Shown one piece after another: positions 1-20,000 of a stretch of 20,000 nt of DNA; the stretch's first letter is position 1; the number at the start of each line of letters is the position of its first letter. The notes under the pieces were generated by a model. The model had not been told where the DNA came from. It saw only the letters and a list, made by a program, of their open reading frames with translations, and did no database searches. Location: assembly GCA_008632985.1 (NCBI GenBank), contig QPGO01000067.1:380590-400589 (forward strand). The letters run 5' to 3'. Origin of the DNA: Psammoneis japonica. Lineage: Eukaryota. A program made the position numbers and the translations under genes.

Positions 1-544
1 GACAGATGGGCTGCACTGGTGATGGGAGAGGACCTGCCCTTGCAGCCAGTGGCTGGTGCCAGCAATGGTGCGGAAGCAATTGCAGCCATGGCAACAACAC
101 AAACTGGTGCATGAGTGCAAATTGCAGCAAACAATGAAATCCAGCAGAACATGGAAAAAACAATGAGGCAAACTGCAAGGCAATTGTCAGTCAAGAACAA
201 ATGGCAGTTGCAACATTTGCTTTTAACACAATGATGCAAAGAGACAAAATGCAGAAAGACATTGCAGGTGAAGATGGTGGATTGAAAGTGACAAGAGATG
301 TGATGAAGAAACTGGGAGCAGCAAATGACAAAAAGGGTTGAGATTGAAGTTGTGGGCAAGAACATTTGCACTTCAAAGTGGGGTGCAATTTAAAATCGAA
401 AAGAAGCTCACAAACTCAATTGGTTCTCAACTGATGTTTGAAGAAAGACTTGGCTTGCAAGTTCACAACAATCTGAAATTGGAGTCAAGAAACACCCAGA
501 TTGTGACAGGTGGTCAGACACAGATTGTTGGCATCCCAGATGTC

Positions 545-1660
545 CTTTCACTCTGGAGCTTGGAAGTTCAAGTCTGCTGCTGTTGGAGACAAATTGACAC
601 GGGGCTGCAACACCATGACATCAACCTTGAAATGTCCAACCACAGTTCTCAAAGTGTTGCCTGGGGTCCACCAGAGATCCCCAATGGCTGGTGCTGTCAT
701 GGTTTTTTTTCACACTCTGGAGTTTGGAAGTTCGAGTCTGCCATTGACAGGCACACATGACATGGGGCCACAACACCTTCAAGATCAACCTTGCAATGTC
801 CAGCCACAGTTCCCACAGTGTCACCTTGGGTCCACCAGAAATCACCAGTGCCCTCAGCTTGCAGCTGTCAGGTTGGCTGGTGCTGTCATGGGGTCCTTTC
901 ACTCTGGAGTTTGGAAACTCAAGCATGCTGTTGTTGCGCACATTGTGGCATGGGGCCACAACACTCCAAGATCAACCTTGCAATGTCCAACTGCAGTTCT
1001 TAAAGTCACACCTGGGATCTGTCAGAGATCACCAACACCCTCAGCTTGCTGTTGTTGTCAGGTTGATTGGTGCTGTCATGGGGTTCTTTTACTCTGGAGT
1101 TTGGAAAAGTTCGTGCTGCTCCTGTTGGGGACAACATGACATGGGGCCACAACACTTCACGACCAATCTTGCAATGTCCAGCCACAGTTCTTGAGGACAC
1201 ACCCAGGGGGGCACCACCAGATTGGTTGGCACTGTCATGGGGCCCTTTCACTCTGGAGTTTGGCAGCTCAAGTGTCTGCTCCTGTTGGGGACAATGTGAC
1301 ATGATTGAGCAACAACGCCGCAACACCAACCTTGAAATGTCTGGCCACAGTTCTTTGAGCAAGTGTTGCCTGGGGTCTGCTGCCAGAGATCACAAATGCC
1401 AACAAGAGCTTGCTGTTGTCAGGTTGGTTGGCACTGCAATGAGGTCTTTTCATTCTGCTGGAGTCTGCCTTGGAAGTTTTCAAATCTGCCCCTGTTGGGG
1501 ACAAGGTTGCATGGGTCCACAGCACACTGCAACATCAACTTTTCAATGTCCAACCACAGTTCTTAAAGCACTGCCCTCAGCCTGCTGCAACTTGTTGGGT
1601 GGGTTGGTGCCATCATGGAGCCACTTTGCTCTGAGGCTGGGAAGCTCAAGTCTGCTTTGC
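545..1660. repeat. Degenerate tandem repeat, ~160-200 bp unit, ~6.5 copies
   Basis: The anchor ACTCTGGAG(T/C)TTGG recurs at 550, 714, 901, 1091 and 1250, and in degenerate form at ~1452 and ~1628. Other shared blocks are CATGGGGCCACAACAC, ATCAACCTTG(A/C)AATGTCCA.CCACAGTTC and GTCAGGTTGG.TGGTGCTGTCATGG. Confidence 0.9.
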
Positions 1661-1844
1661 TGTCTGTGCCAGCCCACTGGAAACAAGAGTGCACTGACAT
1701 GGGCAGCCATTTGTCAGGGAAAGCTGGTGTTGGCAGGAGGTGCTGCAGTTGCAGCACCCCCATGTCTCTCGGGCCTGCTGCTCTGGCTCTTTGCTGGCAC
1801 ATGTCCAGCACAATGGGTTGTTGTTGCAAGTGTGTGGGTTGGAT

Positions 1845-2089
1845 TGACAGAAAATGAAGATGACTGGGTGGAAGAAAACAATGACTCCTTGCTGCTGTCT
1901 AAACAGCAGATGAGTCTCCATGCAGAGACCGTCACAGGAGCCGAAAGACTGGTGTCGTGACATCGGTGCTGCTGTTGTCATTCTTGTGAGCCGTGTGGCT
2001 TGAAAGCAAACCACATCGCGCGACGCGTGCGGAACTAAGAGCACACACAATTGTGTGTGACAAACTAAAATCTTGTTCAAATCCTGTCA
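1845..2089 (-). repeat. 3' LTR (245 bp)
   Basis: Direct repeat of 8443-8689 with TG...CA ends and the terminal inverted repeat TGACAG/CTGTCA. On the minus strand it is preceded by the PPT. Confidence 0.96.
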
Positions 2090-3720
2090 CTCCCCAGTTT
2101 GCTTGAGGGGTCAACAGCGACAGATTCGAAGTCGGATTGGTTGAAAGCCTCGGGATCGAAGTTCCAAAACATTAGAGGACGAAGGAGGTTCCAGATTTGG
2201 GAGCAACCCCAGTGCTTGCTGAGGATGTCAGCCGGGTTGCGGGAGCCTTGGACAAAATGAAACTCGAGGAAACCGGAGGCAATCGCCTCACGCACACGAT
2301 GGAATGAGAGGGCGGTGTGTCGCGTGTGCAACTTGGAGTGCGGGATGGCAGCACTGTCCACAACCGACTTGTTGTCCCCAAACATGCAGCATGTTTCACG
2401 AATGGGAACGCCAAGGCAATGCAAAGTGATGCGCAGATCAATGATCTGCTCGACACACGTCCTTGCGGCAACAAACTCGGATCCATGCGTGGCAGTCTCG
2501 ACTGTTGCTTGTTTCTTAGAGAACCAATCAGCCGGAAACTTGTTGAGAAAATGGAGGATGCCGGTGACAGAGCGGCCAGTGAGCATGCAATGGAACAAGT
2601 TCGCATCGATGCAGTGCGTGGTGGTGACGAACTTGCCAAGCGGCTCGGGCGCATCTTGTGGGAGCAGCTCTTCTACCTCCCCATGCACGGATTGAGCCCA
2701 ATCGCACACGGGCTCAGGGAGGTCCGAACAGTCGGGCTCCTCGGTGTGCACTCGGAGGGTGCCATGACGCATCTTGGAGAGGAATCCGCAGATGCATTTG
2801 GCACGGTCTAGGTGGCCTTGACGGGGCACTGCACGGAAGCCAGACAGGGACATGACAGCTGCAGCAATGTCAATGCGACCCAGAGATGTGGCCCATTGCA
2901 GGGATCCAATCAAGGATTGGAGTTGGTGGATGCCATCCGGTTTGAGTGATTCAGAGGTGTCGAGCTCAGGGTGGTCACCCTTGTCAAGGGGTGAAAGCAC
3001 ATCAGTGCAGGGCTTCTCCCCAAAGAGGCATGTGCAGTTGTCAACCATGTGCTCAATGCACTTGCGGGGAGCAAGGCACAGGGTGCCGTCTGGGTCACAG
3101 GTGAAGTCGCAGCCAAGATGGAACTCCAATGGTCCAGCGCCCTTGAGCTTGAACTTGCACTTCTCCATGAGGGTGTCTGCAAAAGCCTGGGGGTCCTTCA
3201 TGGTGAAGGCCAGGTCGTCCACATGCACTGCCACGTGTTCGCAGTGGTCACCATTCCTGCGCAGCCAGATGTCGGGTTCAGCTTTGCATGGAAAGAAGCC
3301 TTTGGCACGCAAGCAATCGGCAAAGCGTTCATGCCATCTGAGGCCGGAGCTGCGGAGTCCGTACAAGGCCTTGTGGATGACAAGGATGTGTCCTTCCAGG
3401 TCGCCGAACTCGGGGCCTGCCACGATGCACAGTTTCTCCTTGGTCGCAGCTTCAAGGCAGGCATTCCCAATGTCAGTGGCCCAGGTCTCTAGTTTGTTGA
3501 GTTCGGCCAGGAAGATCATCATTGCAGGCCATGGAGAGACACCACTCCGGAACAGACACTGTCGACGGGCACGTCTGTGAGGTGTCCATCGGCAACAAGC
3601 CTTGCTTTGTGCCGTCCGTCATGTTTGACATCGCAGACGAGATGCACCCGGATCTTCTTGTGTCCCGATGGAGCACTGGAATCCTTGTGGTGTCCGCAGT
3701 TGTGGAAGACTTCGCACTCA
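2077..3720 (-). pseudogene. Reverse transcriptase (RVT_2 type) and RNase H part of pol
   Basis: KARLVADGH, DIGNA(Y>C)LEA, KALYGLRSSG, (Y>H)VDDL, SKKQATVETAT(Y>H)GSEF and NPADILSK. One frameshift near 3520. Confidence 0.93.
2090..2100 (-). other. Polypurine tract (plus-strand primer)
   Basis: The minus strand reads AAACTGGGGAG immediately before the TG of the 3' LTR. Confidence 0.8.
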
Positions 3721-6700
3721 TCAAGCTGAGTCATCTCGAGGTCCGTTGCGTCTCCCCACTTGCGTTTGCTGTTGCGCTCATCAAGGGCCATGGCATGCTT
3801 GTAGTCCCGTGGCACTTCATGCCCGCACTTGTGTCGTGGCGCAGTGCGAAAGGAGCGCAACTTGGCTTGGTTGGCCATGTGGAACAGCTTCTTCTGACTG
3901 AGTGCCATCTTGCAAAAACGTCTCCATCCTTTGGTTTCTAGAAGGCCGTGCTCACGCGCGTAGATGGCACAGGGGATGGGGTCGTCCTTGGCAATGATGG
4001 CAAGGGGTTCGGACGTGATCTCCCCATTCTCCCATTCAAGCATGACGTTGTAGCTTGAGCCTTTCCAAGAGGGATCATGGGGTTGCAATGGTCTTTCGTG
4101 CGATGCGATGTGTCGGAACTTCCAGAGAGTTGAGTCCTCGTCTTCTTGCTCAATGTGGTGCATGATGTCATTGCAGGCCAGGACTTCCTCGTGTTCGTCA
4201 TTGTTGATGGAGCAAATGAACTTGACCAGTTCGGGATTGCCTCTGATTTTCCAGTCGTGGTCCTCAACGGCTTTGATGGTGCAGGCTCTGTGGCGTTGTC
4301 CATCCTCTTGTGGCTTCATGAGGAAGGTGCGTCCTGTGACATCCTCGGGGTCAAAGACCGGCATTTTGGGCATCCTGATCGCCTCCCCATGTGGTGAATC
4401 TGGCAAATTCTCGGAGTCGTGGCGGGATTTAATGACAGGGTCAGCAGATTTCTCATCAGGAGGATCAAGACACAGGTTTGGAGCGGACGGATCACGGGTG
4501 GAGTGCACGTTGGAACGGTGGAGAATCTTCTGAGTGTTGTCAGAAAGAATCTTAAACATCATTTGGTGACCAATGTGTTCAGCCATGCCAACGAAGCGAC
4601 CACGTAATTCACGGGATTCGGGCAGCCAGTCAGAATCATCCAGGTGGCAGCAAACGGGTTCCCACCATTGAAAGCGGAGGAGTGGGCTGATGTCAGGAGT
4701 AGAGCCGGACAGCACCTCAGTGGGGGCATGCCAGTGGAGCTTGGCGGATGCCGTGTGGTTGAGCACAAAACACACGCACATCAGGGCGAGCAGCCAGGTG
4801 CAAGCCGGGGACCCGAAGTGATCCATGACAGTGTTGGCCATGGTCTTCACAGTTTGGTGGCGGCATTCAGCAAAATTCTGATGCTGGTGGTGAGGCTCGC
4901 TTTGCCAACTAGAGATGAAGAGGGCACGAAGGATGCCAAGAACCTTGTTGATGAGCTCAACCTGAGCACGGTCGCTGATGAGCTTGGACGGGGCACCACG
5001 ATTGCGAATGTTGTCTTGAGGGTGTTGACAAATTCTTTGTCAGTTTTGGTGCCACACACGTCAGTGACGAGAGATTCTGTGCCTGCAAAGAGCTGGGCGC
5101 TGGTGCAACCAGAGTCAATGGCAGGGGTGTCAGAGCAGACCGTGTCAGTGGCAACGGGTTCATCACATCGGTGGACATTGAGAGCCAGGTTGGGTGATTT
5201 GCACGCCTTTTTCAGGTGCGTGCTGGCTGGCATGTGGGCGCACTGCATCGTGCAATCAAAAGTGTGGCAGGTGGTGTCCTTCAGGAGAAAGCCAAAGCAG
5301 GGGCAGAGGGACTCAAAGTCGGGATCCTTGGGATTGAGTTCACGCTCATGGCATTCATAGAAGAAATCAGATGTCGGGAGCAGGTGATCATCAAGGACGG
5401 AGTCTGCAAGCATGGCGTTGTTGATGACATGGTGGTGATGATGGTCACCGAACTCATCGAAGAGGTTGGCAGTCAGGTTGTCTTGGAGGTCAGACACAGC
5501 ATCACACCATGTCTCATTGTCCGTGAACTGGTGGTCAAGGACAGATGGATCCCATGTGTCATCACCAGTGAGAATGACATGCGGCAGAGTGTCCCATTCG
5601 GCATCGGTGCATGGGCGCATGGCGATGTGCGGGAGGCCGGCTTCATTGTCGATGGGAATGATGCATCCATCAACAGTGGTGACACACTGCAGACCATTGG
5701 GGACCTTGATGGACCAATTGTTGACATCGTGTTTGTGCCACTCGAGTTGGCCGCAAGAGTGCATCGTCTTCCCCTTTCCAGTGCAGGCACACTGGTGAAG
5801 GATGGCAATGGCAGGGCCGCATTGCGTGTGGATGACACCACCGGCAGTGACGGGTGGGGATGTTGACCAGTTGATGATCATCAACACCTTGGACGTCAAC
5901 CTGGCAACCAGCGCGGGCAATGACACAAACATCGAGAGCACCTTTGTGAGTGGACTTGTGGGTCGAGGCAGAGCAGACGACATTGTGGTTGTTGATGCGA
6001 CGGCATTGATGGCTGTTGATCTCAATGTCAGTGTCATTGGGCTTTGCATCGGAGCAGGAGGAAGGTGCAGATCCGGGCGGTTTCTGCCAGAACGGGTGGA
6101 AGGAGGCCGTTCAGGTGCCAGGAGACATTGCAAGTTGCCGGGTGGCAGGGGCTTGCGCCTGGTGAGATGAGCCAGAATGGGGTCAGCATTGGCTGCATCG
6201 GCTGCAGCGTCGGATGGTGCGAGTTCCGATGCAAGATCATGGATGTTGGCGGACAAGTGACATCGCCGTCACTGCCAAGATGGAGGTCATGTGGGTTGAC
6301 CATCGTTGAGTCATGGCAGTTGCCGGTGTGGGCATTGCGTGAGCCAAGAATGATGGCCTTGGTGGACTGGGGCAAGGTGTCCCAAATGTGCTGATGGTCC
6401 AGCAGAATGCGACGCCATTGTTCCCTGGTGAGGGAGTTGCCGCGGGTCTGTGCAGCACAAGCTTGGATGACGTCAACATCACTGTCGATGTCAAAGAATG
6501 CATCATTGTCATGGTCGTCGGGAACCAGGTCATGTTCGTAGATGGCACGGCGTGGGGCGCGAGGAGTGGTCTTGGGGGTGAACGTGCTGTCGTGCTGTGC
6601 TGCAGCAGAAAGCAGAAGTCCACAGTGCTCCTCGTAAGAGAGACCCTTTCCATTCTGCGTGCGGAACTGATCAGCTTGATTCTTTACTGAACGGAGCTCT

Positions 6701-8427
6701 TCGATGGGATGAACGGCATTCTCAAGCATGACACATTTCTGGCCAGCAGAGAAATGGTCCGCACCTGGGACAAGAGCTTCACACTTGCGGAGCTGGTCCT
6801 GCCAGTGAAGCATGAAGGCATGGGTGGATCCCTTCCAGGTGCCATCACCAAGGCGAGCAGTGGCGAGGTGCGTGAGAAGGGTCGAGGACTCCAGGGATGC
6901 ACGAGCAGAAGTGAGGGCGCACTTGGAAAGGTCGCGATGCACCGCTTGAGCATCAGAGGAGCTGACATGTTGACGAACAAGCACCTTGCCTTTGTCATTC
7001 TGCAAGATCCGTTCGAATGTGGCGAACATGCACTTCTGTTGTTCATCAAACAGGGCCTTGTCCTCAGCTGCAGAGGGCTTGCACTTCGGATCAAGAACAA
7101 GTTCGACGTCCTGGGAGGGGCCTGTGCGATGATGGAGGTGTGCCACGTGTGCCACTGTTTGTCTGACTTGAGAGTCGCGAAGGTGAGTGGGTCACGTTTG
7201 ATGCCTCGTTTAAAGTCACACACAGGGTCACGTGGTTTGGGTGGCAAAGAGCCAGGGGTGGGAGCAGATGGCGCTGCACCCATGGAGAGGGATGCTGCAC
7301 ACTCAGGACCAAGACGACAGTCAGTGAACTCCTCGTGAGTGAACAATTGAGGGTTGTTGCTGACATCCGCCCGCCGTGCACTTTTGCCATGTACAGGCTA
7401 ATCAGCGCAGCTGTCTGTGCTTTGTAACCACGTGGCAAGGGCATCTGATTGGTGCCATCGTTGTGCACAAGGGCATCCAGTTGCGTCAGAGTAAAAGCAA
7501 AAAGGTCCTGATGCGAATTGGTTCCATCAATGTTGAGAGCGGAGCACAATGGACTGTCTGCGGCTTGATTCAGAACAGTGCCTAGAATGTGCTCGAGGCC
7601 ATCAATTTGTTGTTGCCTGGTGAGAACCATGTTGCAACTGGGTGAATGTCGGAACTGGCTGGAGTCGGAGGGTGAGCTTGAAACAACTTGAAACTTGACT
7701 TGAATCTTGACTTGATGTCTTGAACTATCTGGAGAGTCAGAAGCCACCGGGCTGTGACATCCCATTCATAGTTAAGTGCCAAGCTTCCCATCTGGTCCAC
7801 AGAGTTGTGCCGGCACGTCGAGCCCGCAGCTGGCAACGCTTTGGGTTGCCTGAGAGCAGAGCAACGGGTTAAAAACCCCTGCTGACAAGCTGACTGGAGG
7901 TGGACAAGACCTCTGAACCGTTCTCATTTTGTGTCGGTTGGATGACCCGATCAGGCCGGCCAAATTTGGCGCTGTGGAGGGACGAACAAACGTGGGAAAT
8001 GCACCCTCGCCCCAACGTGGGCTGCAGTCATGAACTGCTTCCTCTCACAGTTGTCCTCATGGACCTTGTGGGACTGTAGAAGACCAGCAATCTGGTGTGG
8101 ATGCAAGGTGGTAGACTTGGTGTGCACAGAGCAGGGCCAGAGTCAAGGGTTCATGTCGTGTGCACGTGGACGCGAGCGGATGGATTGGTGGGATCTGCCA
8201 TGAGGAATCCGGAATCTCGGATGCTTGAGAATTTGGGAATTCCTGGTCAAACAAATGTCCGTTGAATGAACACATCCAACGATGGGAGGCATTGGACAAA
8301 TCCAAATGTGCAGATTTAATCCAGCACCCAGCAGTGAAGAAGGCAGATGTGTGCTTCCACCACCAACGGTGCGCGTCGTCGAAAAAATTTCTCGATGACG
8401 ATGATGAATGCTCAATGACAACAAAGA

Positions 8428-8442
8428 GCAAGACTGTTAATC
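8428..8442 (-). other. Primer-binding site, apparently complementary to the anticodon arm of tRNA-Asn(GUU)
   Basis: The plus strand reads GCAAGACTGTTAATC directly against the LTR. GA-CTGTTAA-TC is the anticodon stem-loop core of tRNA-Asn. There is no canonical TGG-starting PBS. Confidence 0.65.
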
Positions 8443-8689
8443 TGACAGAAAATGAAGATGACTGGGTGGAAGAAAACAACAACTCCTTGCTGTGCTGTCT
8501 AAATGGCAGATGAGTCTCTGTGCAGAGACCGTCACAGGAGCCGAAAGACTGGTGTCGTGACATCGGTGCTGCTGTCATCATTCTTGTGAGCCGTGTGGCT
8601 TGAAAGCAAACTACATCGCGTGACACGCACGGAACCAAGAGCACACATGATCATGTGTGATGAACTAAAATCTTGTTTAAATCCTGTCA
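8443..8689 (-). repeat. 5' LTR (247 bp)
   Basis: Direct repeat of 1845-2089. Manual alignment gives 21 transitions and one 2-bp indel. On the minus strand it is followed by the PBS. Confidence 0.96.
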
Positions 8690-8694
8690 TGGAT

Positions 8695-10690
8695 GTTGCA
8701 AAGATCAGCTGCATGACAGCAGCCCAACACAAACAACCAAACTGTGTGGGCTGGCACAGATGTGACAATTTCATTCTTGACAAGAGCCGATTGAGGCCAC
8801 AAAAACTCCTGGCATGAATCTTCTTGTTTGAAAACAGCTGTGCTGCATCTGATTGAAACAACATTCAACATCTGGAGCTGCTGAAAAATGAGAACACACA
8901 AGCAACATGCTTTGGCAATGAAGACCAATGAAGCTGTTCATTTGAGTTGGTTCAAACAATTGGAAACCTGGGAGCAGATTCCACCAACAAAACAACACAA
9001 AAACACAGGAGGATGCATCCAAGCAACACACAAACAATGATGACATTGCAAGGGCACCAACACCCAGAACTCTGCAAATGCCAACAAAAAATGACACAGG
9101 AGAGGCAAGAGGTCAGAAGTGCAACAGAGGAGCAGGCAGCTTCCAGCAACAAAAAACAACAACAAACTGATGCCTTCCTTTTGCACTTTTTTCATTTCTT
9201 GAAACTTGGACAAGTTGACAAAAATGGCCAAGGATGAGAAACAAAGTTCTGCAACATTGCACACAAGTGAGCAGAAAGAGTGGCATTGTGCCACAATTGC
9301 AAAAGAAAACACACCTGGCTGACAACTTCTCTGCTGTCTTTTCCCATGGATTTTGCCTTCACATCTCACAATGAAAAGCTGTCACAAAAATTGACTCTGA
9401 CAGGACAGCAGCTTCAAGAACAGAGGGAGCAAAGGCAGCAGAATGGCAGCATAGAATGAGAGCATGAGAGCATGCACCAAATGGCAAACATTGCCAGGGT
9501 GGAAAGCAAGCGTCATTGGAAACCAAAGCTGCAAAGTGCACGCCACCAGCTGACAAGCAAAATGCCAAAATTGTTGGCAGGCTCCAACCAAACAGCGACA
9601 ATCAGTCAGATCAACTTGGGTGTGTGTGTGCACAGAAATGAACCATGTTTCATTCATTGTGGTCCCCTGCTTTGCCAACTCAGTTGAGGATTGGCAATGC
9701 TTCATCATTCACAGTTGTTGCCCTGTGGTTGCTGAGTTCAAAATGAGTCTTGTCAAGAGCCCATTTTCTGTGAAACCAAATTTTCTTGAGTCTTGTTTCC
9801 TGCTTCACCAATTTAGTGAATTGTTCAAATTGATTGCTCACCATGAATGAGCACTTGACAAGAACACAGGCTTCTTGTCAAGCAAGTTTCAACTGTGTGA
9901 ACAAGAGCGGCTGTGTTTTCCAGACACGTGTGTGGTGTGTGCTTGCACACATCAACACGTCAACAATCTCAAATCAATGTGAGTGTTGGTGGTGCCACTG
10001 ACAACAACAAGCATTGTTGTTGCTTTCATCCTTGAGCACTTCCCCAATCTCCTTGGCTTTTGGGCTCTTGTGTGAGCACAGGTGACTGGCCAAAACAGAA
10101 GCACCGCAAGAGCAGTGCCGCCACACCAGAGCATTTGAGGCATGAGCTGATGGAGACTCCCAAATGGGACCCATTCACTGGTGATAAAGCCAACCAAACT
10201 TGTGCTTGATGCGCTTGGAATGAAGACAATTGCACCCTTGTCTCATTGTTTGTGATGCAGACATTCTTGAGGACCGGAAAACGTGAGAAGTGCGGTGCCT
10301 CTCGAGACAGTTTCGTCATTTGCTCGGCTCATTGTAAACTAAAACATCAATCACAACAATTTCAGCTGGAATCTTGTCAAGTTTTGATGCAACATGCTTT
10401 GCTTGGCAATGGACAACTCCCACATTCTTGGCTTGGAGCGACGAGTTTCATCACATTGTGCCTTTCCAAAGTGTGCGAGCATTCCATCAACACTCAGACA
10501 CAGTCAGTTTTTTAATGATGACTCAGCGAGAAGATTTTTGAACACAATGCTGGTCAGCATGGTAAGGTCTTCAAGGACAAAGGCACTCATCTTCCATCAT
10601 GATCTGGAATCGGTCATGACATGCTTTGCCGCGAGCTGATGCAGGAATGAAGAATCATCGACTGAAAATAAAAATGTCAGTCGTGCATGC
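8695..10690. repeat. Decayed, unidentified repeat/TE-derived DNA; probably continuous with 1-1844 before the copia insertion
   Basis: Same TpA and CpG depletion as 1-1844. The TSD joins the two flanks. No convincing protein motif is readable. Confidence 0.45.
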
Positions 10691-10895
10691 AGGCGCTATC
10701 GGGCGTAGTTTTCTACGCAGGTAGTACGGCGCAGAAGAGGGTACTCGAGCGAACGCCTGTTTCTTTCTTTCGCCCCTCACAAAAAGTTCTCTTTCCGCAC
10801 AATTTATTATTCCAACAAATTATTACTGTTTAGAAAGAGCACACAACCAAGGCACGAGGATAGAAGAAACTTCCTTTATACGATAGTCGCTCATA

Positions 10896-11774
10896 ATGGC
10901 GTCCCTAACCCAAGATTTACCGGATACCACCGAAAGGAAGAACTCGCGTTGGAGGTTCGGACGCTCACAAAATACGGCCGGACTCCATTGCAACACGTGC
11001 GGGGTTCAAACACACAAGCGCAATCGCTTTTCACTGCTTCGTCGCAAATTGGTACCTCTTACCATAGAGAACAGAGTCTTGAATGGACGGTGCCTTTTAT
11101 GTACTGAAGGACCAATGGAGAATGAAATTGCTGAGCCAGACACTGGAACGACCCATGGGAGAGAAGATGACATTAATTTCGAAACCGATCGCTTGGTTGC
11201 CAGCCTGGCAGGCCTTGGTCTACTTCTAACAATCCTTGTCGACGATGAAGAAAATACCGTCAATGACGTTGAGTCTCATGTTGGAATTGAAGAAATTTGT
11301 GAGGAATCACTTGCCGGCGATGTTGTTGAAAACGATGAGGAGAAACCCAACACCACAGACGACGAAATGAAATAATCCTTGGATCCAACCAAGTGTTCCA
11401 TATGCTTATGCGGTGAGGAAGATTTCTCATCCAAAGAAGAGAATTGCGTGGCGACCATTGATGGCTGCAGACATCGGTTTTGTTTCGAGTGCATCAAAGA
11501 GTGGAGTGCTCATGAAAACACCTGCCCGCTTTGCAAGACCCGATTCACGAGGATTTCTACGTTGCGAAAGCACTCGTCCATGTCAGATACAACTGAGATT
11601 GTGCCCCGTAGGGATCAAAGACCAGCCGACGATGACTTGGTTCCGACATTCATCGCTGATGCTTTGAGAGAAATTCTCGTGCAGCTTCTCATGGTTGCGG
11701 AGGAAGAGGATTCTGACGACGACGACGATTCTGTAGCAGCTCAAAGGGCATGGGAAGACTACTTTGGTCCGTAA
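10896..11774 (+). CDS. RING-HC (C3HC4) protein, putative E3 ubiquitin ligase, with an N-terminal CxxC...CxxC domain; interrupted by one in-frame TAA at 11373-11375
   Basis: ORFs 10896-11375 and 11379-11774 share a frame. The RING reads CSIC-x16-C-x-H-x2-C-x2-C-x10-C-x2-C (GCRHRFCFECIKEWSAHENTCPLCK), with an acidic linker and tail. Confidence 0.75.
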
Positions 11775-12196
11775 TCATCATTTGAATCCTATTTTGAATT
11801 CGTCGCCGCACCTGATCGCACTGTTGGTTGGTCTCGATGCATCATGCATCATTGCGTCACTTGCGTCATGCGTGTCTCTCCGATTAGAATCCGACTACAT
11901 AAGTAAAGCCTTGCAGCCTCGTCTCGAGTTCTGCAATCCTCGCATGAACCAGTAGAACACTAACAGAACACTTACGAATACCGTTTCTGCATAATCAACG
12001 AGCTAGCGTACCGGTAGGCAATGAAGGTTAGGTTTATTTGAAAAAACTACATATTTTTTTTTTTTGACGGAGTGGGCCTGTCGGTTTCTGTTTTCATTGT
12101 CGTTGCGGTAGATTTACTATTGACTTTCTTTGTAGATTAGACAATACAATCTGGTAAGATGATCTTCAGATACGAAATAATTTTCCACGACTCCGA

Positions 12197-13354
12197 ATGA
12201 GGCGCGAACTCTGCGCTGCCGCGATCAGGCGCGAATTCATCAGTCGGAGTCACAACCAATTGTTGCTGACACCCGTTGTCTCTGGTACAAAAGCGCAGAA
12301 GAAACACAAGCAACTCCGGAAGCAACAGGGAACGATGAACACGTTGCCAAATAGGTCCATGAATGGCGAAGGCTTTGGCAAAGTCCCAAACAATGCCATG
12401 CCGAACCGTTGGTGGAAAAAGTATAAGCGACAGATGCGATGCAGAAATAATTTTGCAGTCCCGAGTCATGCAAAGAGATTCTCAGCTTTTCCGAATAGAT
12501 TGAATTCCATGAGAATCGAGGGTTCTACCACCGAAGGCTTGTGTCAGTGTCAGTCTTGCCATCCTGAGCTCCAACAACATGATCAGAAAAAAAAGTCTTG
12601 TACAGCTGTAGAAAAGAAACCATCAAGTGATAGAGAGGAGCCGAGCTCGAGCCAGAACGCTGAAACGTGTAGCATATGTAGAGTCGGTGATTTATCCGCT
12701 TATGACAATGCCGCTGCGATCAATGGCTGCCCGCATCTCTTTTGTTTCAAGTGTATTGATGAATGGTCCAAACATGAGAACAGCTGTCCGCTCTGCAAGA
12801 AGCGGTTCACTTGCATTTTCTATCTCTATGCAGGACAAAAGACGAGGGCTTCTGCTTCACCCACCAACGCCCGACTCATTTGCAAACACGTGGAGAGTCG
12901 AAGTCAAGCTCCACCAAGTAACGAACAAGTGTTCATGGATTGGTCTGACCACTTTCACGTTGAAGATGAGGGTGAAAGGCGCGAACGAGATGGCACAGGT
13001 TCAGAGAGCGAAGCGGAAACAAGTTGGAGTCCCTCTGCTCCGGTTGCAGCAGCCGATGAAGATTCAGATCAAGACTCGACGCCATTTGAGCCACCGCCGG
13101 CACCTCCTCAAATTTCGATTGAGGACGAAGATGAAGAGTACTCGAACCTGAATGCGGCTTTTCCCCACCTCCTGGGACTCGAGCCAGAGGAGAAGGAGGA
13201 GGAGCAGGAGCAGGAGTCTCCGCGAGAAGACGGTTCATACGAAGTTGATCATTCGGAGGAGAATCAAGTCGTTTACACTCCTTTTATTACCAGCATCACA
13301 TACATTAGTGACAGTGAAGACACTTCCCATCTTTTGGACGAAGATTTCAGGTGA
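12197..13354 (+). CDS. RING-HC (C3HC4) protein, putative E3 ubiquitin ligase, with a long acidic C-terminus (start may be ATG 12335)
   Basis: 385-aa ORF containing CSICRVGDLSAYDNAAAINGCPHLFCFKCIDEWSKHENSCPLCKKRF at ~12668-12808. Confidence 0.85.
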   Translation: MRRELCAAAIRREFISRSHNQLLLTPVVSGTKAQKKHKQLRKQQGTMNTLPNRSMNGEGFGKVPNNAMPNRWWKKYKRQMRCRNNFAVPSHAKRFSAFPNRLNSMRIEGSTTEGLCQCQSCHPELQQHDQKKKSCTAVEKKPSSDREEPSSSQNAETCSICRVGDLSAYDNAAAINGCPHLFCFKCIDEWSKHENSCPLCKKRFTCIFYLYAGQKTRASASPTNARLICKHVESRSQAPPSNEQVFMDWSDHFHVEDEGERRERDGTGSESEAETSWSPSAPVAAADEDSDQDSTPFEPPPAPPQISIEDEDEEYSNLNAAFPHLLGLEPEEKEEEQEQESPREDGSYEVDHSEENQVVYTPFITSITYISDSEDTSHLLDEDFR

Positions 13355-14045
13355 CACAGATCAGAGGAAGGACCCTGAAGCATCGTTGTTTAAATGCGAG
13401 GCTACATACAAATACACGTCGGAAGACTTTTGCATTTTTGATAGAATACATGCACCATTGACAGATTATACATTGTCCGTAATAAATTTCTTATACGTTT
13501 CTGTGTCTAATTCCCGTTTCGCTCCCCCCACTCTCTAGTAGAAATGCCTAGAGTTGACTTTATTAACGAAACATTCGAAGGCAACGTTTGGATCACATGA
13601 TTTGATCAACATCCGAGCTACTCTCGAGAGAAGTTTCCGTTAGAACATTGAGAGAAAGAGTTATCAGCATCACCTCCAGTTACACGACATTCACCAGGCT
13701 ATGTCGCCTTACAGACAGAGTTCTCCCGTTCTGGCCGAGCTTACCGAAGGGAGGAACATTTGTTTGAGAGTGGTAACTTTGATCAAAATGCGAGCTTCTG
13801 AAGTCTAGAAAGCAGTCTCGGTCGGGACATTGAGCAAGAGCTAACAACATGAGCGGTACTCTACCACGTCCAACTACCTGTAGCTCCAAAAAACATGTCA
13901 TCAGTGTTCCCTCATTTGAGCAGTTTGCGTCCTTACGTACAGTGGATTTCTCTACCGGTGGAGTATACTGATGACAACAAAATGGTTCTAGAGTTTTAAG
14001 ATATTTGGTACCCCACAGAATGAAAATTCAATCCGTTACTGGCTA

Positions 14046-15684
14046 TTACAACTGAGACAAGACTTCGTCAGCAATAGCAATTGTCTTTTCAATGTCTTCA
14101 TCTGTGTGTGCCAACGACATGAAACCAGCCTCGTACATGGAAGGAGCAAGATAGACACCACGTTCCAACATCATGCGGTGCCACTTTCCAAACTTTTCTC
14201 CGTCCGACTCGGAGGCTTGAGAAAAGTTCTTGACGGGCCCTTCGGTAAAGAAGAATCCAAACATTCCTCCGGCAACACCACCGGAAATGGCGTGGCCGTG
14301 CTTTTCTGCGGCAGCGGTAATTCCGTCGACAAGCTTTTGTGCCTTGCGCTCGAGTTCATCATACGTGCCTTCTTCTTTGAGTTTCTTCAGAGTCTCAATA
14401 CCGGCAGTCATGGCAAGGGGATTACCGGAAAGAGTACCGGCTTGGTACATTGGACCGGCGGGAGCAACCATCTCCATGATATCCTTGCGGCCACCGTAGG
14501 CACCAACGGGAAGGCCTCCACCAATAACCTTACCCATGGTGGTGACATCTGGTGTGATTCCAAAGTATTCTTGGGCACCACCATATGAGACACGGAATCC
14601 AGTCATGACTTCGTCAAAGACAAGGAGAGCGCCGTTTTCCTTGGTCAATTCACGGATTCCCTCCAAAAACTCTTGGTCGGGCTTGATGAAACCCGAGTTT
14701 CCAACGACGGGTTCCAAAATGACAGCGGCGATCTCGTCCTTGTTGTCCTCAAAGATTTTCTTGACAGACTCGAGATTGTTGTATTCGGCACAGTACGTGG
14801 CCTGTGTGGCCGAGGCGGGAACACCGGGAGAGTCGGGAAGACCAAGCGTGGCAACACCGGATCCAGCTTGGACCAAAAAGGAATCGGCGTGTCCGTGGTA
14901 GCATCCCTCAAACTTGATTACCTTTTCGCGTCCGGTAAAGGCACGGACAAGACGGATCATTCCCATGCACGCTTCGGTTCCCGAGTTGGTGAATCGCACC
15001 ATTTCGACAGACGGAACGGCGTCAATTACCATTTTGGCCAATTCGTTTTCGAGTGGGCAAGGAGCACCAAAGGATGTGCCCTTTTCCATAGTGGCAGCAA
15101 CAGCCTTGAGTACAGTGTCATCAGCGTGTCCGAGAATGGCCGGTCCCCATGTTCCAACGTAGTCAATGTATTTGTTGTCATCCACGTCCCAAGCATAGGC
15201 GCCCTTGACGTGATCAAAAACGACGGGGTTTCCTCCGACACTCTTGAACGCACGGACCGGAGACGACACACCACCGGGCATGAGCTGAATATAATAGAAG
15301 TGGAAAAGATAAAGAGTGAGAGAAGGTGAGAATGATTTTTTTCGCGTGATTCTTTTGATTTCTCGACAGGCGCCAACGATGAATCTAGCCGACCAAAGAT
15401 TTTCACGGTAGCCAGAGGAACCGGTATGTTTCCAATGGAATTTTAAGCTTTGCAAAGAACGCAAAACAACTCTCTTCCACCTCGCCGTTCTTAATTTTCT
15501 CGACACTCTCACATGATAACACTCACGTTTTGAGCTTCGGCAAAGATTTCTTCACTCTTGGCAAAGTATAAGTTTCCGTCTCGACGGCGCTCATTTTCAG
15601 GCCATTGTTGGAACGAGTACCAAAAGCTGGTGCAAAGGCGGAGGCCGAGCCAACCAAGAGTGCGGATGCGATTGTCAACTTCAT
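14046..15684 (-). CDS. hemL: Glutamate-1-semialdehyde 2,1-aminomutase (GSA-AT), plastid-targeted; exons 15527-15684 and 14046-15284
   Basis: Motifs [40 protein letters not shown], the PLP lysine in TMGKVIGGG, and [10 protein letters not shown]. Exon 1 reads [19 protein letters not shown] (diatom ASAFAP motif). The GTGAGT...TTCAG intron is phase 0. Exon 1 is 158 nt, one base short at ~15563. Confidence 0.97.
15285..15526 (-). other. Spliceosomal intron of the GSA-AT gene (242 bp)
   Basis: Donor GTGAGT follows ...EAQN. A pyrimidine-rich tract and acceptor TTCAG precede LMPGG. Splicing gives the conserved [21 protein letters not shown]. Confidence 0.9.
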
Positions 15685-16276
15685 GGTAATATCTAAACCG
15701 TATTGTTGTTGTCAACCACAGAAATGGATCGGATAGTGGTCTGATGCGACGAGTGAGATGAAGTGTTGCCAAGTTGAAGTCGAAACAACGTGCCAACATA
15801 CGTACGCATGGAAGGAATCCTTCAATTTCAGAACGCAAATGATCTTCCTTCCACGTGTACGGTGGGGATGTAGAAACTAGTATTAATAGTACGCATCCCA
15901 CGTACTGCCAATCAGAGTCTGAGAGGCAATCTTTTTGTTGAAGTTCCTTTTGCGACCCGCGAAAAAGCTGTCGGATTCTTTCAGTCAAGTCAGTCGTTGA
16001 CATGAAAAGGGATCAGGCGGCTGTGCTCCAAAACACTGATTTTCCACGTACGCACAACATACCGGTACTACATCATACCATGGCGACGTTGCGTCGTTTC
16101 CACTGCCGCTGTCAGGTCGCTAAAAATGGGTGAGTCGCATGAGATATTGTTTGTAATTACCTTTACTGTCAACCGTGGGGATGACAACTGCCTATAGCCT
16201 ACTCAGCTTCATCTTGATCTCTGCAGTGACATGCCATCCCTCGTCTACTAGACTTTCATACAGATCAACAAGAATC

Positions 16277-17267
16277 ATGCGACAATTCTTACTCATACTA
16301 TTATACACTCGAGCCGTCCGCTGCACTTTTGCTTTGAGCAGCAGCTACTTATTTCAAAAAGCCCGACCGGAAATCCTCAATCTGCTGAATCATCCGCTGC
16401 AACTCCAGTTGGCGACAGGCGATCTTTCCTTGGGCGCCTTTCAAAGATTAGTTTTGGATCGCAAAGCCATTTTGGAGGGATTAATGCAAGCAACAACAAC
16501 GGGAGGAGAACTGCAGGCAAGCGTGCAAGCCGAATTGGATCGGCACGACAAGGTCCATCAGGAATGGTTGGAGACGGCCAAAGAATCTGGCAAATCAATA
16601 GTCGTGCCAGATATAGAGTGTTTACGTGTGGCGGCCATCACCTCAACATTGATTGCCCACAAGATCAGCAAATTAGTTCTAGCGCTCTCGCTCTGAAATC
16701 ACTGCTGATTTCCAATGGATTGGTGGGTGCTGCTGCCGTCCTTCAATGCCATGGGTTTTGTTGTCGTGCACTCTTGCAGGCCTTTCAAACGTGCTGGAAC
16801 GACAAGAAAATACGATTGAACTCAATCCAGCCTGTCATGGTTGGCTAAAGAGTCATGCGGAGCAATGGTCAGAATTGGGAGAACTCTGTAGTGCTCAACT
16901 GCTGGCACAACAAGATGGTGATTCCGAAGGATACACGGTTTGTCTTTCCATGCTTTACAATTGGATTGACGCCGAAGCGGCAACGACTGGAATTCGTGCC
17001 GATCTAAACGATCCAACCCTTTCAGCATTGCTAGATGAATTGGAACGGTTGGAACCGGGGTATGCTTCACAACGCGATAAACATCAATCCTTTGTGGCAG
17101 ATTTAACCGGCGTTAAGACGGGACAAGCGCTTCAGCAAAGGGCCCTTGACAAGGCGGAAAAAGCTGCAGCCTATCTGGCCGCCAAGAAAAACAAAAATGC
17201 CAAGTTGGATGCAGCACAGGCTTATTTAGCCGCCAAGAAGAAGAAAGAGTCCGAGGGCGATTCATAG
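16277..17267 (+). CDS. Uncharacterised protein with a signal-peptide-like start, TenA/THI-4-like helices and an internal CCHC zinc knuckle; two apparent 1-bp frameshifts
   Basis: Three overlapping ORFs join if one T (~16622) and one A (~16810) are restored in homopolymers. The joined product contains LLNHPLQLQLATGDLSLGAFQRL, ECFTCGGHHLNIDCP, NPACHGWLKSHAE and a duplicated AAxAYLAAKK tail. Confidence 0.7.
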
Positions 17268-17789
17268 CAATGCCATTAAGATGCAAAGAGGAGACAGATC
17301 GCACACGAGATCGCACAGCGAAGTGGCCACCGTGATGATTCTAAGCAACACCGCCACTGTTCAGTAGCTGCATTTCGAAACACTCAAAGCAACCAGGCTG
17401 TGCAAGGATCGCAAGGGCAGCGACAGGGTTGCCGCCGAATTCTACCAAACTCGCATTCTTGTGCTTGAGTGAAGATTTTCTCGATGGCATTTGAACCCAT
17501 CGACTGGAGCTCTGCTTGTTGCAATCTGAAATCCTCAGCAATTCATATTCTTGATGGTTCAGACCTAATTCGGCTTTAAACTTCCCTCTTCTCGGAAATG
17601 TCATTGACAAACGATGGCAGCACCACATCATTGTGTTTGTCCGTATTCTACCCGCACATTCACGTTTCTTTCTAGGAATAGTCTAGCAGCTTTCCAGTGG
17701 GATTCATTCGATTACTATCAGTAGCAAGACGTGAGAGTACATTTAGTCATTAGTTACGTTGGACGACTCGCTCTGCTCTGCGAGTGACT

Positions 17790-17990
17790 GTGTAGGGCCC
17801 CAGCAACTCTAGCTCGCGGTCGCCACTCTAGCTCTCTCCACTCTCTCTAGAGAGGGCCTTCCGGCAGCTAGCTAGCTACTTCTACTCTCTCTAGAGTAGA
17901 GAGCTAGAAGTAGTAGTCTCTACTCTAGAGTAGGGCCCTATCCTGCCTATGCCTAGAAGTATAATACTAGACTCTAACTAGACTAACAGC
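17790..17990. repeat. CTAG/CTCT-rich low-complexity tract with nested palindromes
   Basis: CTCTCTAGAGAG (~17843), AGCTAGCTAGCT (~17866), the CTACTTCTA...TAGAAGTAG inverted repeat (~17876-17913), CTACTCTAGAGTAG (17920-17933) and TAGGGCCCTA (17931-17940). Confidence 0.85.
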
Positions 17991-18228
17991 GAAGAGGCAC
18001 AGGCTCCGAATTTCTAAACCGGCGCCGTATGCAGCTGGTTCGAGACTAAGAGATGATTCCAGATTCCTCCTTCTCCCGTAGAAATTAACGTACGTAGTTT
18101 CTACGAATGCTTTGTACCAACGATCTTCTTGGAACTCCCTGACACAGACGACAGACGCTGAAACAGACCATGGCCTCGAGCCGTTCCTGACTCTCGCCTT
18201 ATTCTTTCTATCTAATCACAACATCACA

Positions 18229-19576
18229 ATGGCAGACGAAGCCCGCGCCATGCTGGATGCCCTCATGGGTGGTGACCGCAACGCCCCGCTACCCCAAGGC
18301 TCCGACGGTCGAGCTCCCCGTCGCACCAAGCGCTCGTGCTTTGATCGAGACATTTGTCCACTCTATTGCGCTTGGGGCGTCGACGTGTACGAGTTGTTTC
18401 GCAACACCAAATCCGACACGCTTGTCGGTATCAATCCCAATGTCGTCGATCCGGCCGCACACGAGGAATTCAAAAACTTGCCTCCGGTGGAACAAGAGCG
18501 TCTCGGATACAAGTCCATGTTGTTTCGTAAATTACAAGAGCTCGTGCAAAAGTGTGATCGAACCGTCAATCGCAACAAGGAAAAGCTGCGACAAGAAAAT
18601 GCCAAGCAAGCGCAGAGTCGGGGTGGACAGGATTTTGTGCAGCATGTCGATGAAGCGGCCGTGACGCAATTGGCGTCTGCCATGGTGCGTTTTGAATATC
18701 TGGAAGAGGACGTCATGGAGCTTGTCGGCAAGTTGCAAGAGATTCAAAAAACACAAGACGAACTCGAGGAGAAATTTGTGAATCTCTTGAAGAAGAAACA
18801 AGCATCCGAAAAAGATGAAGAAACAAAACAGGATGCAAAGGAAACGGAGAAGCCAAGGCAGAGCAAGTCACCGAGAGTGAGCATGCTTCGAAACCGCCAG
18901 AAGAAGCGGCTGCTACAGAAGAAAAGACGAAACGAAACAAGAAGACAAATCGACGAATGGCGAAAACAAGGAGGATGCAGACAAGACCAAGGATGGCACT
19001 GACGATGACAAGCTCGAAATGGAATTGCAGGAAGCGCTGGAAAAGACTCGCATTGAAAAACAGCACTTGCTTGTCGATCTCAAACTCAAGATCGGTCAGT
19101 ACCAACCCCTCAAGGAATCCATCCAGAGCCAACGCTATCAATTGGAGTATGTCAAGTCGGACATTACGTCAGACAAGACGGTTTGTGAAGTGTCTGGAAA
19201 CTTTATGAGTTCGCGCGATGCCGATGAACGCATTGCGGCGCATTATGCGGGCAAGCAATACGTGGGATGGAAGTTGGTGCGAGACAAGCTTGAAGAAATG
19301 CAAAAGGAATATGGGCGTTATGGACCACCAGGAGGCGGACGCCCGCCGCCTCCTCGAGACGATTACCGAAATCGTGGTCGGTATCATCGATCTCGGTCGA
19401 GAGAACGAGCTCGTGACCGCGGTCGCGGACCAAGTCCACCAAGGTGGGAACGTGGAGGAGGTGGTGGTGGTTACCGTGGCGGTGGTGGCTATGGAGGTGG
19501 CGGCGGCGGCGGTGACTGGAGGAGAGACCGTGGTGGCGGTGGTAGAAGGGATAGCGGTCGTCGTCATTGGAGGTAA
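18229..19576 (+). CDS. LUC7: LUC7-like U1 snRNP-associated splicing factor; two apparent 1-bp frameshifts in an E/K-rich insert
   Basis: N-terminal MADEARAMLDALMGGDRN, a coiled coil, VCEVSGNFMSSRDADERIAAHYAGKQYVGW (the LUC7 ZnF2 region) and an RS/RG-rich tail. Adding one A at ~18843 and one at ~18924 restores a single frame. Confidence 0.88.
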
Positions 19577-20000
19577 AGTGTTGCTTGCATGGGGTGAGTG
19601 ATATGGACCTAGAGATGACGGAGTATTTTTTTATGCCACACAACATGTTATTCTCCTCGTTGCATAGCAAATCGTAGCAGCTTGGAGAGAAGGAGTGGTA
19701 CTGAAAGAGGAAACGAATATTTTGACGGCGCGAAGACCATTGACATGAGAGCTCTGTAAGTAAAAAGTGAGTAAAACATTTAGTACATTTGCGTTCTAGA
19801 TTCCTTGCTTGCAGCAGACGACACGAAAGCAACAGGGGCGGTTGCATTGCTTTGGACCGCCCTACGTACCCATTTGCTTGTGTTCTAATGTGAGTATACC
19901 TATTGATTTGACACTCGTGCAAGAAACACTAATTGCTTCCGTTAGAACGACTTGGTCCAGTTTGGGTTGCCACCCAACAAAACGATTGTTCGTGTGCGAA

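Follow-up and report, generated by a model that had tools for sequence, protein, structure and literature searches.

The two long terminal repeats (LTRs) of a retrotransposon are identical at insertion, and the locus described here raises the question of how such a pair came to differ by transitions only, and only at a few kinds of dinucleotide. The locus lies in a window of 20,000 nucleotides, the whole stretch of DNA that was analyzed, from the diatom Psammoneis japonica (assembly GCA_008632985.1, contig QPGO01000067.1, positions 380,590 to 400,589 of the forward strand), in which a Ty1/copia retrotransposon occupies positions 1845–8689. An original prediction, made from the letters alone, attributed the differences to changes that followed insertion and struck one strand or the other at palindromic TA or CG steps. 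The present analysis upholds this, in that the LTR differences are confined to pyrimidine-purine steps and the element and its flanks have lost almost all of their TA, and it goes further in two respects: the surrounding satellite DNA is also affected, and the sites of change are mostly TA, not CG. The LTR pattern is the local expression of a regional removal of TA, and more slowly of CG, in favor of TG and CA. The explanation that we prefer, with a probability of about 0.8, is a post-insertion, region-targeted process in this diatom that produces A:T to G:C transitions at TpA.

Differences between the LTRs

1840–1844, no strand: left copy of the target-site duplication, TGGAT
1845–2089, minus strand: LTR of 245 bp (TGACAG...CTGTCA), the 3' LTR in the orientation of the element
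8443–8689, minus strand: LTR of 247 bp (TGACAG...CTGTCA), the 5' LTR in the orientation of the element
8690–8694, no strand: right copy of the target-site duplication, TGGAT

The LTRs were delimited by repeat search and alignment, and the duplications were read from the sequence. The presence of the same 5-bp duplication on both flanks indicates that the pair results from one single insertion, and a recombinant of two elements was ruled out on the same ground. Alignment of the two LTRs gives 23 differing columns, which consist of 21 transitions and one 2-bp gap (TG, after position 1892), with 0 transversions, exactly as had been counted by hand in the original prediction. When the sites are sorted by pyrimidine-purine dinucleotide (YR step), those that differ between the LTRs comprise 8 TG/CA, 3 TA/CA, 1 CG/TG, and 1 CG/CA, and those that are equal comprise 2 TA/TA, 9 CG/CG, 26 TG/TG, and 14 CA/CA; the classes of differing sites that had been predicted were all recovered, and every example quoted for them was found in its place. 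All 21 substitutions fall within YR steps, and 0/117 aligned non-YR columns changed (upper 95% bound, 2.5%), which agrees with the claim that only TA- and CG-type sites are affected. If the substitutions are treated as 13 independent events, the probability that all of them would lie inside the 130 of 247 columns that belong to YR steps is about 2e-4, and the chance of 21/21 transitions under a 2:1 prior is also about 2e-4.

The divergence between the LTRs is 8.6% as a raw value and 9.4% as a Kimura two-parameter distance. Because none of the non-YR columns has changed, ordinary divergence must be far below this distance. The 9% LTR divergence thus records the targeted process and not age, and the warning that conventional LTR dating would overestimate the age of this insertion was well founded.

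Direction of change in conserved codons

2143–7597, minus strand: polyprotein-coding region with shifting frames, collinear with copia polyproteins of about 1850–1930 residues (tblastn of 20 homologs)

The ancestral state at the affected steps can be obtained from the coding region, which was aligned collinearly with 20 full-length homologs of 1789–1933 residues; a codon was regarded as conserved when at least 80% of at least 12 of these 20 agreed. Among 757 conserved codons, 628 are identical in the element and 129 are changed. Of 39 conserved Tyr codons, only 6 are kept, whereas 20 have become Cys (TGY), 10 His (CAY), 2 Phe, and 1 Leu, so that 30 of the 33 lost Tyr codons are now TGY or CAY. 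Since Tyr codons have turned into TGY and CAY, the change ran from TA, as the ancestral step, to TG and CA. The composition of the reverse transcriptase-RNase H (RT-RH) open reading frame (ORF) is altered correspondingly, with 0.2% Tyr as compared with 4.3% in homologs and 5.3% Cys as compared with 1.4%. The positions of 52 conserved Arg residues hold 32 CGN, 4 AGR, 6 TGY, 8 CAY, 1 CAA, and 1 AGT codons, and the proportion of CGN codons lost to TGY, CAY, or CAA is therefore 15/47.

Of the 129 changed codons, 39 fit a single TA to TG or CA change, 31 a single CG to TG or CA change, and 10 another transition. The remainder, 29 that involve a transversion and 20 that have no single-step fit, probably reflect older divergence within the family. 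The main cause of change is thus the loss of TA, and CpG decay is a slower, secondary component: the element does have a deficit of CG and CG to TG or CA changes, and these leave the loss of TA unexplained. Two general causes were also considered and rejected, namely selection against TA, since conserved Tyr residues have been destroyed in a selfish element, and GC-biased gene conversion, which is not specific for TA.

Ancestral states at the LTR sites

The rates of loss were estimated from the LTR pair with a model of two classes of site, TA and CG, in which the rate is equal within a class, either strand is chosen equally often, and double hits on the same strand are invisible. The log likelihood (lnL) is −19.2 if all 8 TG/CA sites derive from TA (fraction lost per copy, pTA 0.82 and pCG 0.10) but −31.5 if all derive from CG, and the model implies that the LTR of 245 bp started out with about 20 TA. 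Independent estimates from the coding region are 33/39 (∼0.85) for pTA and 15/47 (0.32) for pCG. With a loss of about 0.85 per copy, most former TA steps would have been altered in both copies of the LTR, and the half in which opposite strands were struck appear as TG/CA; the 9 intact CpG steps and only 2 that are half-hit do not fit with 8 CpG double hits. The original prediction that TG/CA sites result from opposite-strand hits in the two LTRs is therefore in keeping with the model, which assigns all or nearly all of them to former TA, although, under the coding-region value of 0.32 for pCG, about 1 of the 8 could be a former CpG. The end of one short contig from a read set of the same sample (X3, see below) has TA at 2036/8636, a weak hint from a single contig.

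Regional limits of the TA loss

542–1650, no strand: satellite array hosting the insertion, with units of about 164–191 bp, almost without TA and CG (repeat families D1–D7 and Tandem Repeats Finder rows)
8695–10500, no strand: right flank, still depleted in TA (TA and CG positions, sliding observed/expected ratios, and X1 contig depth of 56 from 9849)
12158–19576, no strand: host genes that serve as an internal control

The loss of TA is not a property of the element as such. The observed/expected ratio (o/e) of TA is 0.04 in 1–1844, 0.11 in the element, and 0.45 in 8690–20000; in 1-kb steps it is 0.00–0.18 from position 1 to about 10000 and 0.32–0.93 beyond. Summarized by half, the ratio is 0.03–0.12 over 1–10000, which takes in satellite, element, and flank, and 0.4–0.9 over 10000–20000. 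The TpA/ApT ratio is similarly 0.04–0.11 in the depleted parts (0.11 in the element) as compared with 0.60 in the gene region, and TG and CA are raised to an o/e of 1.3–2.2 where TA is depleted, with a (CpA+TpG)/(ApC+GpT) ratio of 1.60 in the element. The o/e of CG is about 0.1 in the satellite flanks (0.09 in 1–1844) and 0.5–0.8 inside the element (0.65 overall). Among adjacent double differences between satellite units, CA/TG is the leading type (52/213). The host genes to the right have a TA o/e of 0.4–0.9 and a normal Tyr content of 2.0–3.6%. In the one window analyzed, the loss of TA is accordingly regional, and neighboring host genes are spared.

On the right, 8690–10185 contains only 2 TA; CG returns from about 9900 and TA only from about 10500. 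The loss of TA seems to extend 350–650 bp into unique DNA, but the depleted stretch of single-copy depth could alternatively be an old part of the array that is no longer repeated. The satellite (542–1650 and 8695–10000) is more depleted than the element (TA o/e 0.03–0.07, CG o/e ∼0.1), and X1 contigs connect 1154 to 9320, so that related repeat sequence is present on both sides of the insertion.

Sequence context of surviving and lost TA

The contexts of the 48 TA that survive in 1–10200 were compared with those of the 341 TA in 10601–20000, which are small samples from a single window. TTAA accounts for 12/48 survivors but only 13/341 in the gene region (p 5e-6), whereas ATAN accounts for 5/48 and 142/341, respectively (p 1e-5). 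When each strand is counted separately, T-A-T is found in 5/96 as compared with 157/682 (p 1e-5) and T-A-A in 40/96 as compared with 140/682. The lost Tyr codons provide a comparison by strand: His, the outcome when the antisense strand is struck, comes after a purine in 9/10 cases, and Cys does so in 8/20 (p 0.017). These contexts suggest a strand-specific preference for an A that has T on its 5' side and a pyrimidine on its 3' side.

Read sets, copy number, and age

Three read sets, X1, X2, and X3, come from one shared sample; for X1, the type of library is not recorded. X1 contains 81% of the sampled words from 6000–15999 of the window. The k-mer depth of its contigs is about 56 over the genes and 61–77 over 894–1873, 8664–8986, and 9369–9656, and in the TA-poor flanks the contigs have 6 other letters than the window in 1592 bases. 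The poverty of the flanks in TA is thus seen in accurate reads as well, and this is evidence against strand-specific miscalling of a modified base in a long-read assembly.

The summed X1 depth is 6,500–52,700 over the element and 1172–1975 over the satellite, as compared with 56 in unique DNA. X1 includes 11701 contigs of the element family, which are mostly 90–95% alike and differ by transitions at 1062/1251 changed places. This depth and this bias are as expected for a burst of near-identical copies, each altered independently. That the insertion is young is further supported by the rows listed, among which there are only 4 internal places at which all of the X1 depth differs from the present copy by a transversion.

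The two other read sets are of a different character. X2 covers 10673–20000 only in patches, whose depth varies widely and reaches 155 over the RING-finger ORF, and X3, which is tiny, consists of contigs of 43–193 bp that lie mostly on the LTRs and the element (1906–8549). X2 and X3 may be RNA or small-RNA libraries; none of the three read sets is listed as RNA.

Proposed mechanism and alternatives

The following sequence of events would account for these observations. A Ty1/copia element inserted into a satellite array of the diatom nuclear genome, after which a process acting on DNA, and limited to the repeated or silenced region, converted TpA to TpG or CpA. Each change is an A:T to G:C transition that strikes either strand at a given site, independently in each copy, and the process came near to saturation, with a fraction of about 0.8–0.85 of TA lost per copy. 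CpG decays more slowly to TpG or CpA (∼0.1–0.3 lost) at the same time, which would be expected if 5-methylcytosine is present in the element. Where the LTRs differ as TG/CA, a former TA was altered in both on opposite strands; about an equal number of former TA were changed on the same strand in both and are invisible, and ordinary mutation has hardly touched the LTRs. Of this account, the data show the signature, its origin from TA, its timing after insertion, its confinement to a region, and its occurrence in an accurate read set, whereas the chemistry, the targeting, and the role are inferred. The chemistry would most likely be that of an enzyme that deaminates adenine next to a 5' T and prefers sites with a pyrimidine on the 3' side. 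Targeting would be by repeat or chromatin state, and by analogy with a process in the chlorarachniophyte Bigelowiella natans, discussed below, the role would be one of genome defense. A more ambitious form of this proposal is that diatoms possess an enzymatic defense at repeats and heterochromatin in which adenine is deaminated in genomic T-A(-pyrimidine) steps, rewriting transposons and satellites to saturation within about 0.1% of ordinary divergence and erasing Tyr codons and TAA and TAG stops; that it is homologous to the chlorarachniophyte process; and that A-to-I editing of DNA is an ancient genome immunity throughout the SAR (stramenopile-alveolate-Rhizaria) lineages and a mirror of the fungal process of repeat-induced point mutation (RIP). 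This wider form is put forward tentatively, and we consider it rather more apt to fail than to stand.

Several points weigh against the preferred explanation and should be recognized. What the 8 TG/CA sites of the LTRs were originally does not come from a direct reading, and one short X3 contig end has CG at 2028/8628, so that here, at least, the original step was perhaps CpG. Within each class the model allows only one rate, and the loss of CpG is about 0.1 in the LTRs as compared with 0.32 in the coding sequence. X1 may come from the very sample that was assembled, and would then provide only partly independent support. The contigs of X1 extend 29 and 26 letters into the LTRs where 31 are needed for bridging, and the letters of the LTRs therefore lack verification at the level of reads. 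The copy is also not pristine, as 5 frame changes have been mapped in the polyprotein region (4–5 frameshifts, according to how those at 6044 and 5857 are counted), and indels are commoner than would be expected from the absence of transversions in the LTRs. Furthermore, over 9849–15291, which is unique DNA at single-copy depth, there are 14 gaps between the window and an X1 contig in 5.4 kb. The same comparison gives only 6 letter differences, and so many gaps point either to length errors left in the assembly or to heterozygosity for indels.

Such length errors bear on the possibility that the LTR differences are an artefact, in which a long-read base caller misreads a modified base at TA or CG in a strand-specific manner and the true LTRs are identical. 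Nanopore data do contain strand-specific transition miscalls at methylated motifs, transitions confined to palindromic steps are the pattern that such miscalling would give, and the gaps suggest a long-read assembly with residual errors. However, contigs with a k-mer depth of 56–77 require accurate reads; the 11701 contigs of the family vary mainly by transitions, as from independent real hits; and the same signature is present in Illumina mutation-accumulation data from another alga. In addition, TG and CA outcomes alternate from site to site within 245 bp and differ between the LTRs in identical context, which fits neither an artefact of majority coverage nor one driven by context. An artefact is therefore unlikely, though somewhat less so for the LTR letters themselves. 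Decay of methylated CpG acting alone would instead derive the TG/CA pairs from CpG hit on opposite strands, and TA from CA in a RIP-like manner. CpG decay does take place in the element, to judge from the Arg codons now reading TGY, CAY, or CAA, and both the two LTR sites at which CG is paired with TG or CA and the CG in the X3 contig end would suit this explanation. The intact CpG steps in both LTRs and the lower likelihood tell against it, as do the lost Tyr codons, which show the change from TA directly, and a depletion of TA that is the inverse of RIP in both of its indices. It is highly improbable, and the scenario that the original prediction had named as contrary to its own, with all TG/CA from CG and TA from CA, is contradicted by the TpA/ApT ratio, which is the opposite of that produced by RIP.

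Two further alternatives concern the chemistry and the timing of the changes. In the former, thymine rather than adenine is the modified base: an oxidized or hypermodified T, such as 5-hydroxymethyluracil or 5-formyluracil made by TET/JBP enzymes at TpA in silenced DNA, pairs with G and leads to T to C transitions. TET/JBP enzymes are present in algae, 5-formyluracil mispairs with G, and at a palindromic TA an A to G change on one strand is indistinguishable from a T to C change on the other. The effect of neighboring bases fits an A before a pyrimidine, with T-A-T most depleted, yet it can be restated as a T with a particular 5' neighbor; moreover, the only published proposal is for a candidate adenine deaminase like ADAT2. 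We regard thymine chemistry as unlikely, though a serious candidate. In the latter, the changes precede integration and arise from ADAR-like editing of genomic RNA or from a deaminase acting on cDNA; in animals, retroelement RNA is subject to A to G hyperediting with a preference for a 5' U. LTRs copied from one template would, however, share such changes, whereas 13 sites differ here; both strands are affected (20 Cys and 10 His); and the satellite and flank, which are not part of the element, are depleted even more. Editing before integration is thus barely credible and, by the LTR differences and the flanks, refuted as the main cause, and a post-insertion process directed at TpA is the explanation to be compared with known systems.

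Comparison with known systems

Hypermutation of genomic DNA specific for TpA has one precedent, a preprint of 2026 on a chlorarachniophyte, and the same signature is now found in a diatom. When mutations were accumulated in lines of B. natans, two integrated viral regions received 231 of the 302 point mutations in the nucleus; all but one of the 231 are A to G or T to C, all of these are at TpA, and the rate in those regions is about 1000 times the background (Mettrop et al., bioRxiv 10.64898/2026.01.13.699255). The B. natans genome contains 124 clusters that are poor in TpA and rich in CpA and TpG, and reverse-transcriptase and DDE domains are overrepresented in its coding sequences that are poor in TpA; as the agent, an adenine deaminase resembling ADAT2 is proposed there, which is unproven (10.64898/2026.01.13.699255). 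In what the preprint text describes, the two systems are alike in that A to G or T to C changes at TpA give TpG or CpA according to strand and affect particular foreign or selfish regions. They differ in host, since B. natans belongs to the Rhizaria and the diatom to the Stramenopila, and in target and extent, since the insertions in B. natans are single-copy and derive from nucleocytoplasmic large DNA viruses and virophages, with TpA about halved (Rho 0.45), whereas here a highly repeated retrotransposon and a satellite are altered almost to saturation (TpA at 0.03–0.12). CpG decay accompanies the process here, whereas the preprint text reports none, and de novo events were measured in B. natans, whereas here the events are deduced from the sequence. 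A term search of the main text of the preprint gave no mention of diatoms, LTRs, or the context of flanking bases. A full-text literature search gave no report of TpA-directed mutation in diatoms, the B. natans preprint being the sole relevant paper.

Fungal RIP is a functional analogue of the process considered here but chemically its mirror image. Both are post-integration, act on DNA, produce only transitions on both strands, and disable repeated DNA. RIP leaks into flanking sequence, and the effect here, which seems to continue for several hundred bases into the unique sequence next to the array, may be likened to this. The usual thresholds of the RIP indices call for a high TpA/ApT and a low (CpA+TpG)/(ApC+GpT), and the element, with 0.11 and 1.60, has the reverse: RIP converts C to T, mainly at CpA, and so makes TpA, whereas TpA is destroyed here. 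RIP also needs RID in premeiotic fungal cells. The diatom methyltransferase DNMT4 is related to RID, but its function is given as unknown (PMC9998398).

Decay of methylated CpG in transposable elements accounts for the CG/TG and CG/CA sites of the LTRs and for the changes from Arg to Cys or His, and it likewise gives TG/CA pairs between copies, but it is incapable of converting Tyr to Cys or His or of removing TA, and it is minor in the element (CG o/e 0.65, as compared with about 0.1 for TA). ADAR and APOBEC enzymes likewise produce clusters of transitions of the deaminase type, have a preferred 5' neighbor, and target selfish elements. They act, however, on RNA or minus-strand cDNA before integration, are asymmetric with respect to strand, and leave the LTRs identical, whereas here the LTRs differ, both strands are affected, and the host satellite is included.

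The occurrence of the signature in a diatom means that the process is no curiosity of one alga, and many marine protists may share it. An LTR pair whose target-site duplication is intact serves as a natural, datable record of how fast the process acts, which strand it strikes, and in what context, and a preference for a 3' pyrimidine and the resistance of TTAA are already visible here. Dating of diatom retrotransposons from LTR divergence can be in error by one to two orders of magnitude. Affected elements are also difficult to annotate, as Tyr is lost, Cys and His are gained, TAA and TAG stops are gone, and long spurious ORFs turn up in every frame. The enzyme might be sought in diatoms that are amenable to genetics.

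Structure of the element

2090–2095, minus strand: purine run GGGGAG directly upstream of the 3' LTR, polypurine-tract-like by its position
3085–3483, minus strand: RVT_2 reverse transcriptase domain (Pfam PF07727, E 1.1e-13), residues 46–178 of the ORF at 2077–3618 on the minus strand

The element is a Ty1/copia LTR retrotransposon of the diatom CoDi-like type and lies on the minus strand, as do its long ORFs. It has the direct LTRs with TG...CA ends, the 5-bp duplication, and the reverse transcriptase of the RVT_2 type that are characteristic of the group. The reverse transcriptase ORF has 2729 database relatives, with PF07727 in all of the 120 listed, and the few that are named come from a diatom (Cylindrotheca). 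No close relative that might be a sister copy was found in the protein database, where identity reaches 66–68% at best. A degenerate pattern for the LTR core, used to look for other copies, gave 0 matches in metagenome contigs and 0 in viral contigs.

The frame of the polyprotein changes near 7116, 6044, 5857, 5017, and 3522, and there are 0 stops among the aligned codons. At two of the frame changes, 5017 and 7117, other genomic copies represented by X1 contigs have one extra base, a C before G; single bases have therefore been lost from this copy at former CpG steps. The Pfam models for integrase and gag gave no match in the element, but they gave none in the intact homolog P0121 either, and the missing matches are therefore uninformative about decay. 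The order of domains, with integrase upstream of reverse transcriptase in one polyprotein, would follow from the collinearity over about 5.4 kb with polyproteins of 1850–1930 residues. There are 33 stop-to-stop ORFs of at least 100 residues in 7.7 kb (1500–9200, six frames), many of them overlapping. Since TA is nearly gone and TGA is the sole remaining stop, long ORFs arise spuriously and may mislead gene callers.

The median Tyr content of 240 copia homologs is 4.17%. One of them, P0083 (552 residues, from an ENA metagenome), has only 0.91%, with Cys and His raised, and two others, P0053 and P0032, have about 2.3%. These three may belong to other genomes in which copies have lost TA in the same way.

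Host genes in the window

12158–13354, plus strand: RING-finger ORF (Pfam)
14046–15551, minus strand: glutamate-1-semialdehyde aminomutase (Pfam)
18082–19576, plus strand: LUC7 (Pfam)

The aminomutase is at most 92% identical to database proteins, and the named ones come from diatoms (Helicotheca, Fistulifera, Nitzschia, and Phaeodactylum), which identifies the host as a diatom. The LUC7 homolog is divided over two overlapping frames, 18082–19002 and 18881–19576, which could be due to a short intron or to a frameshift.

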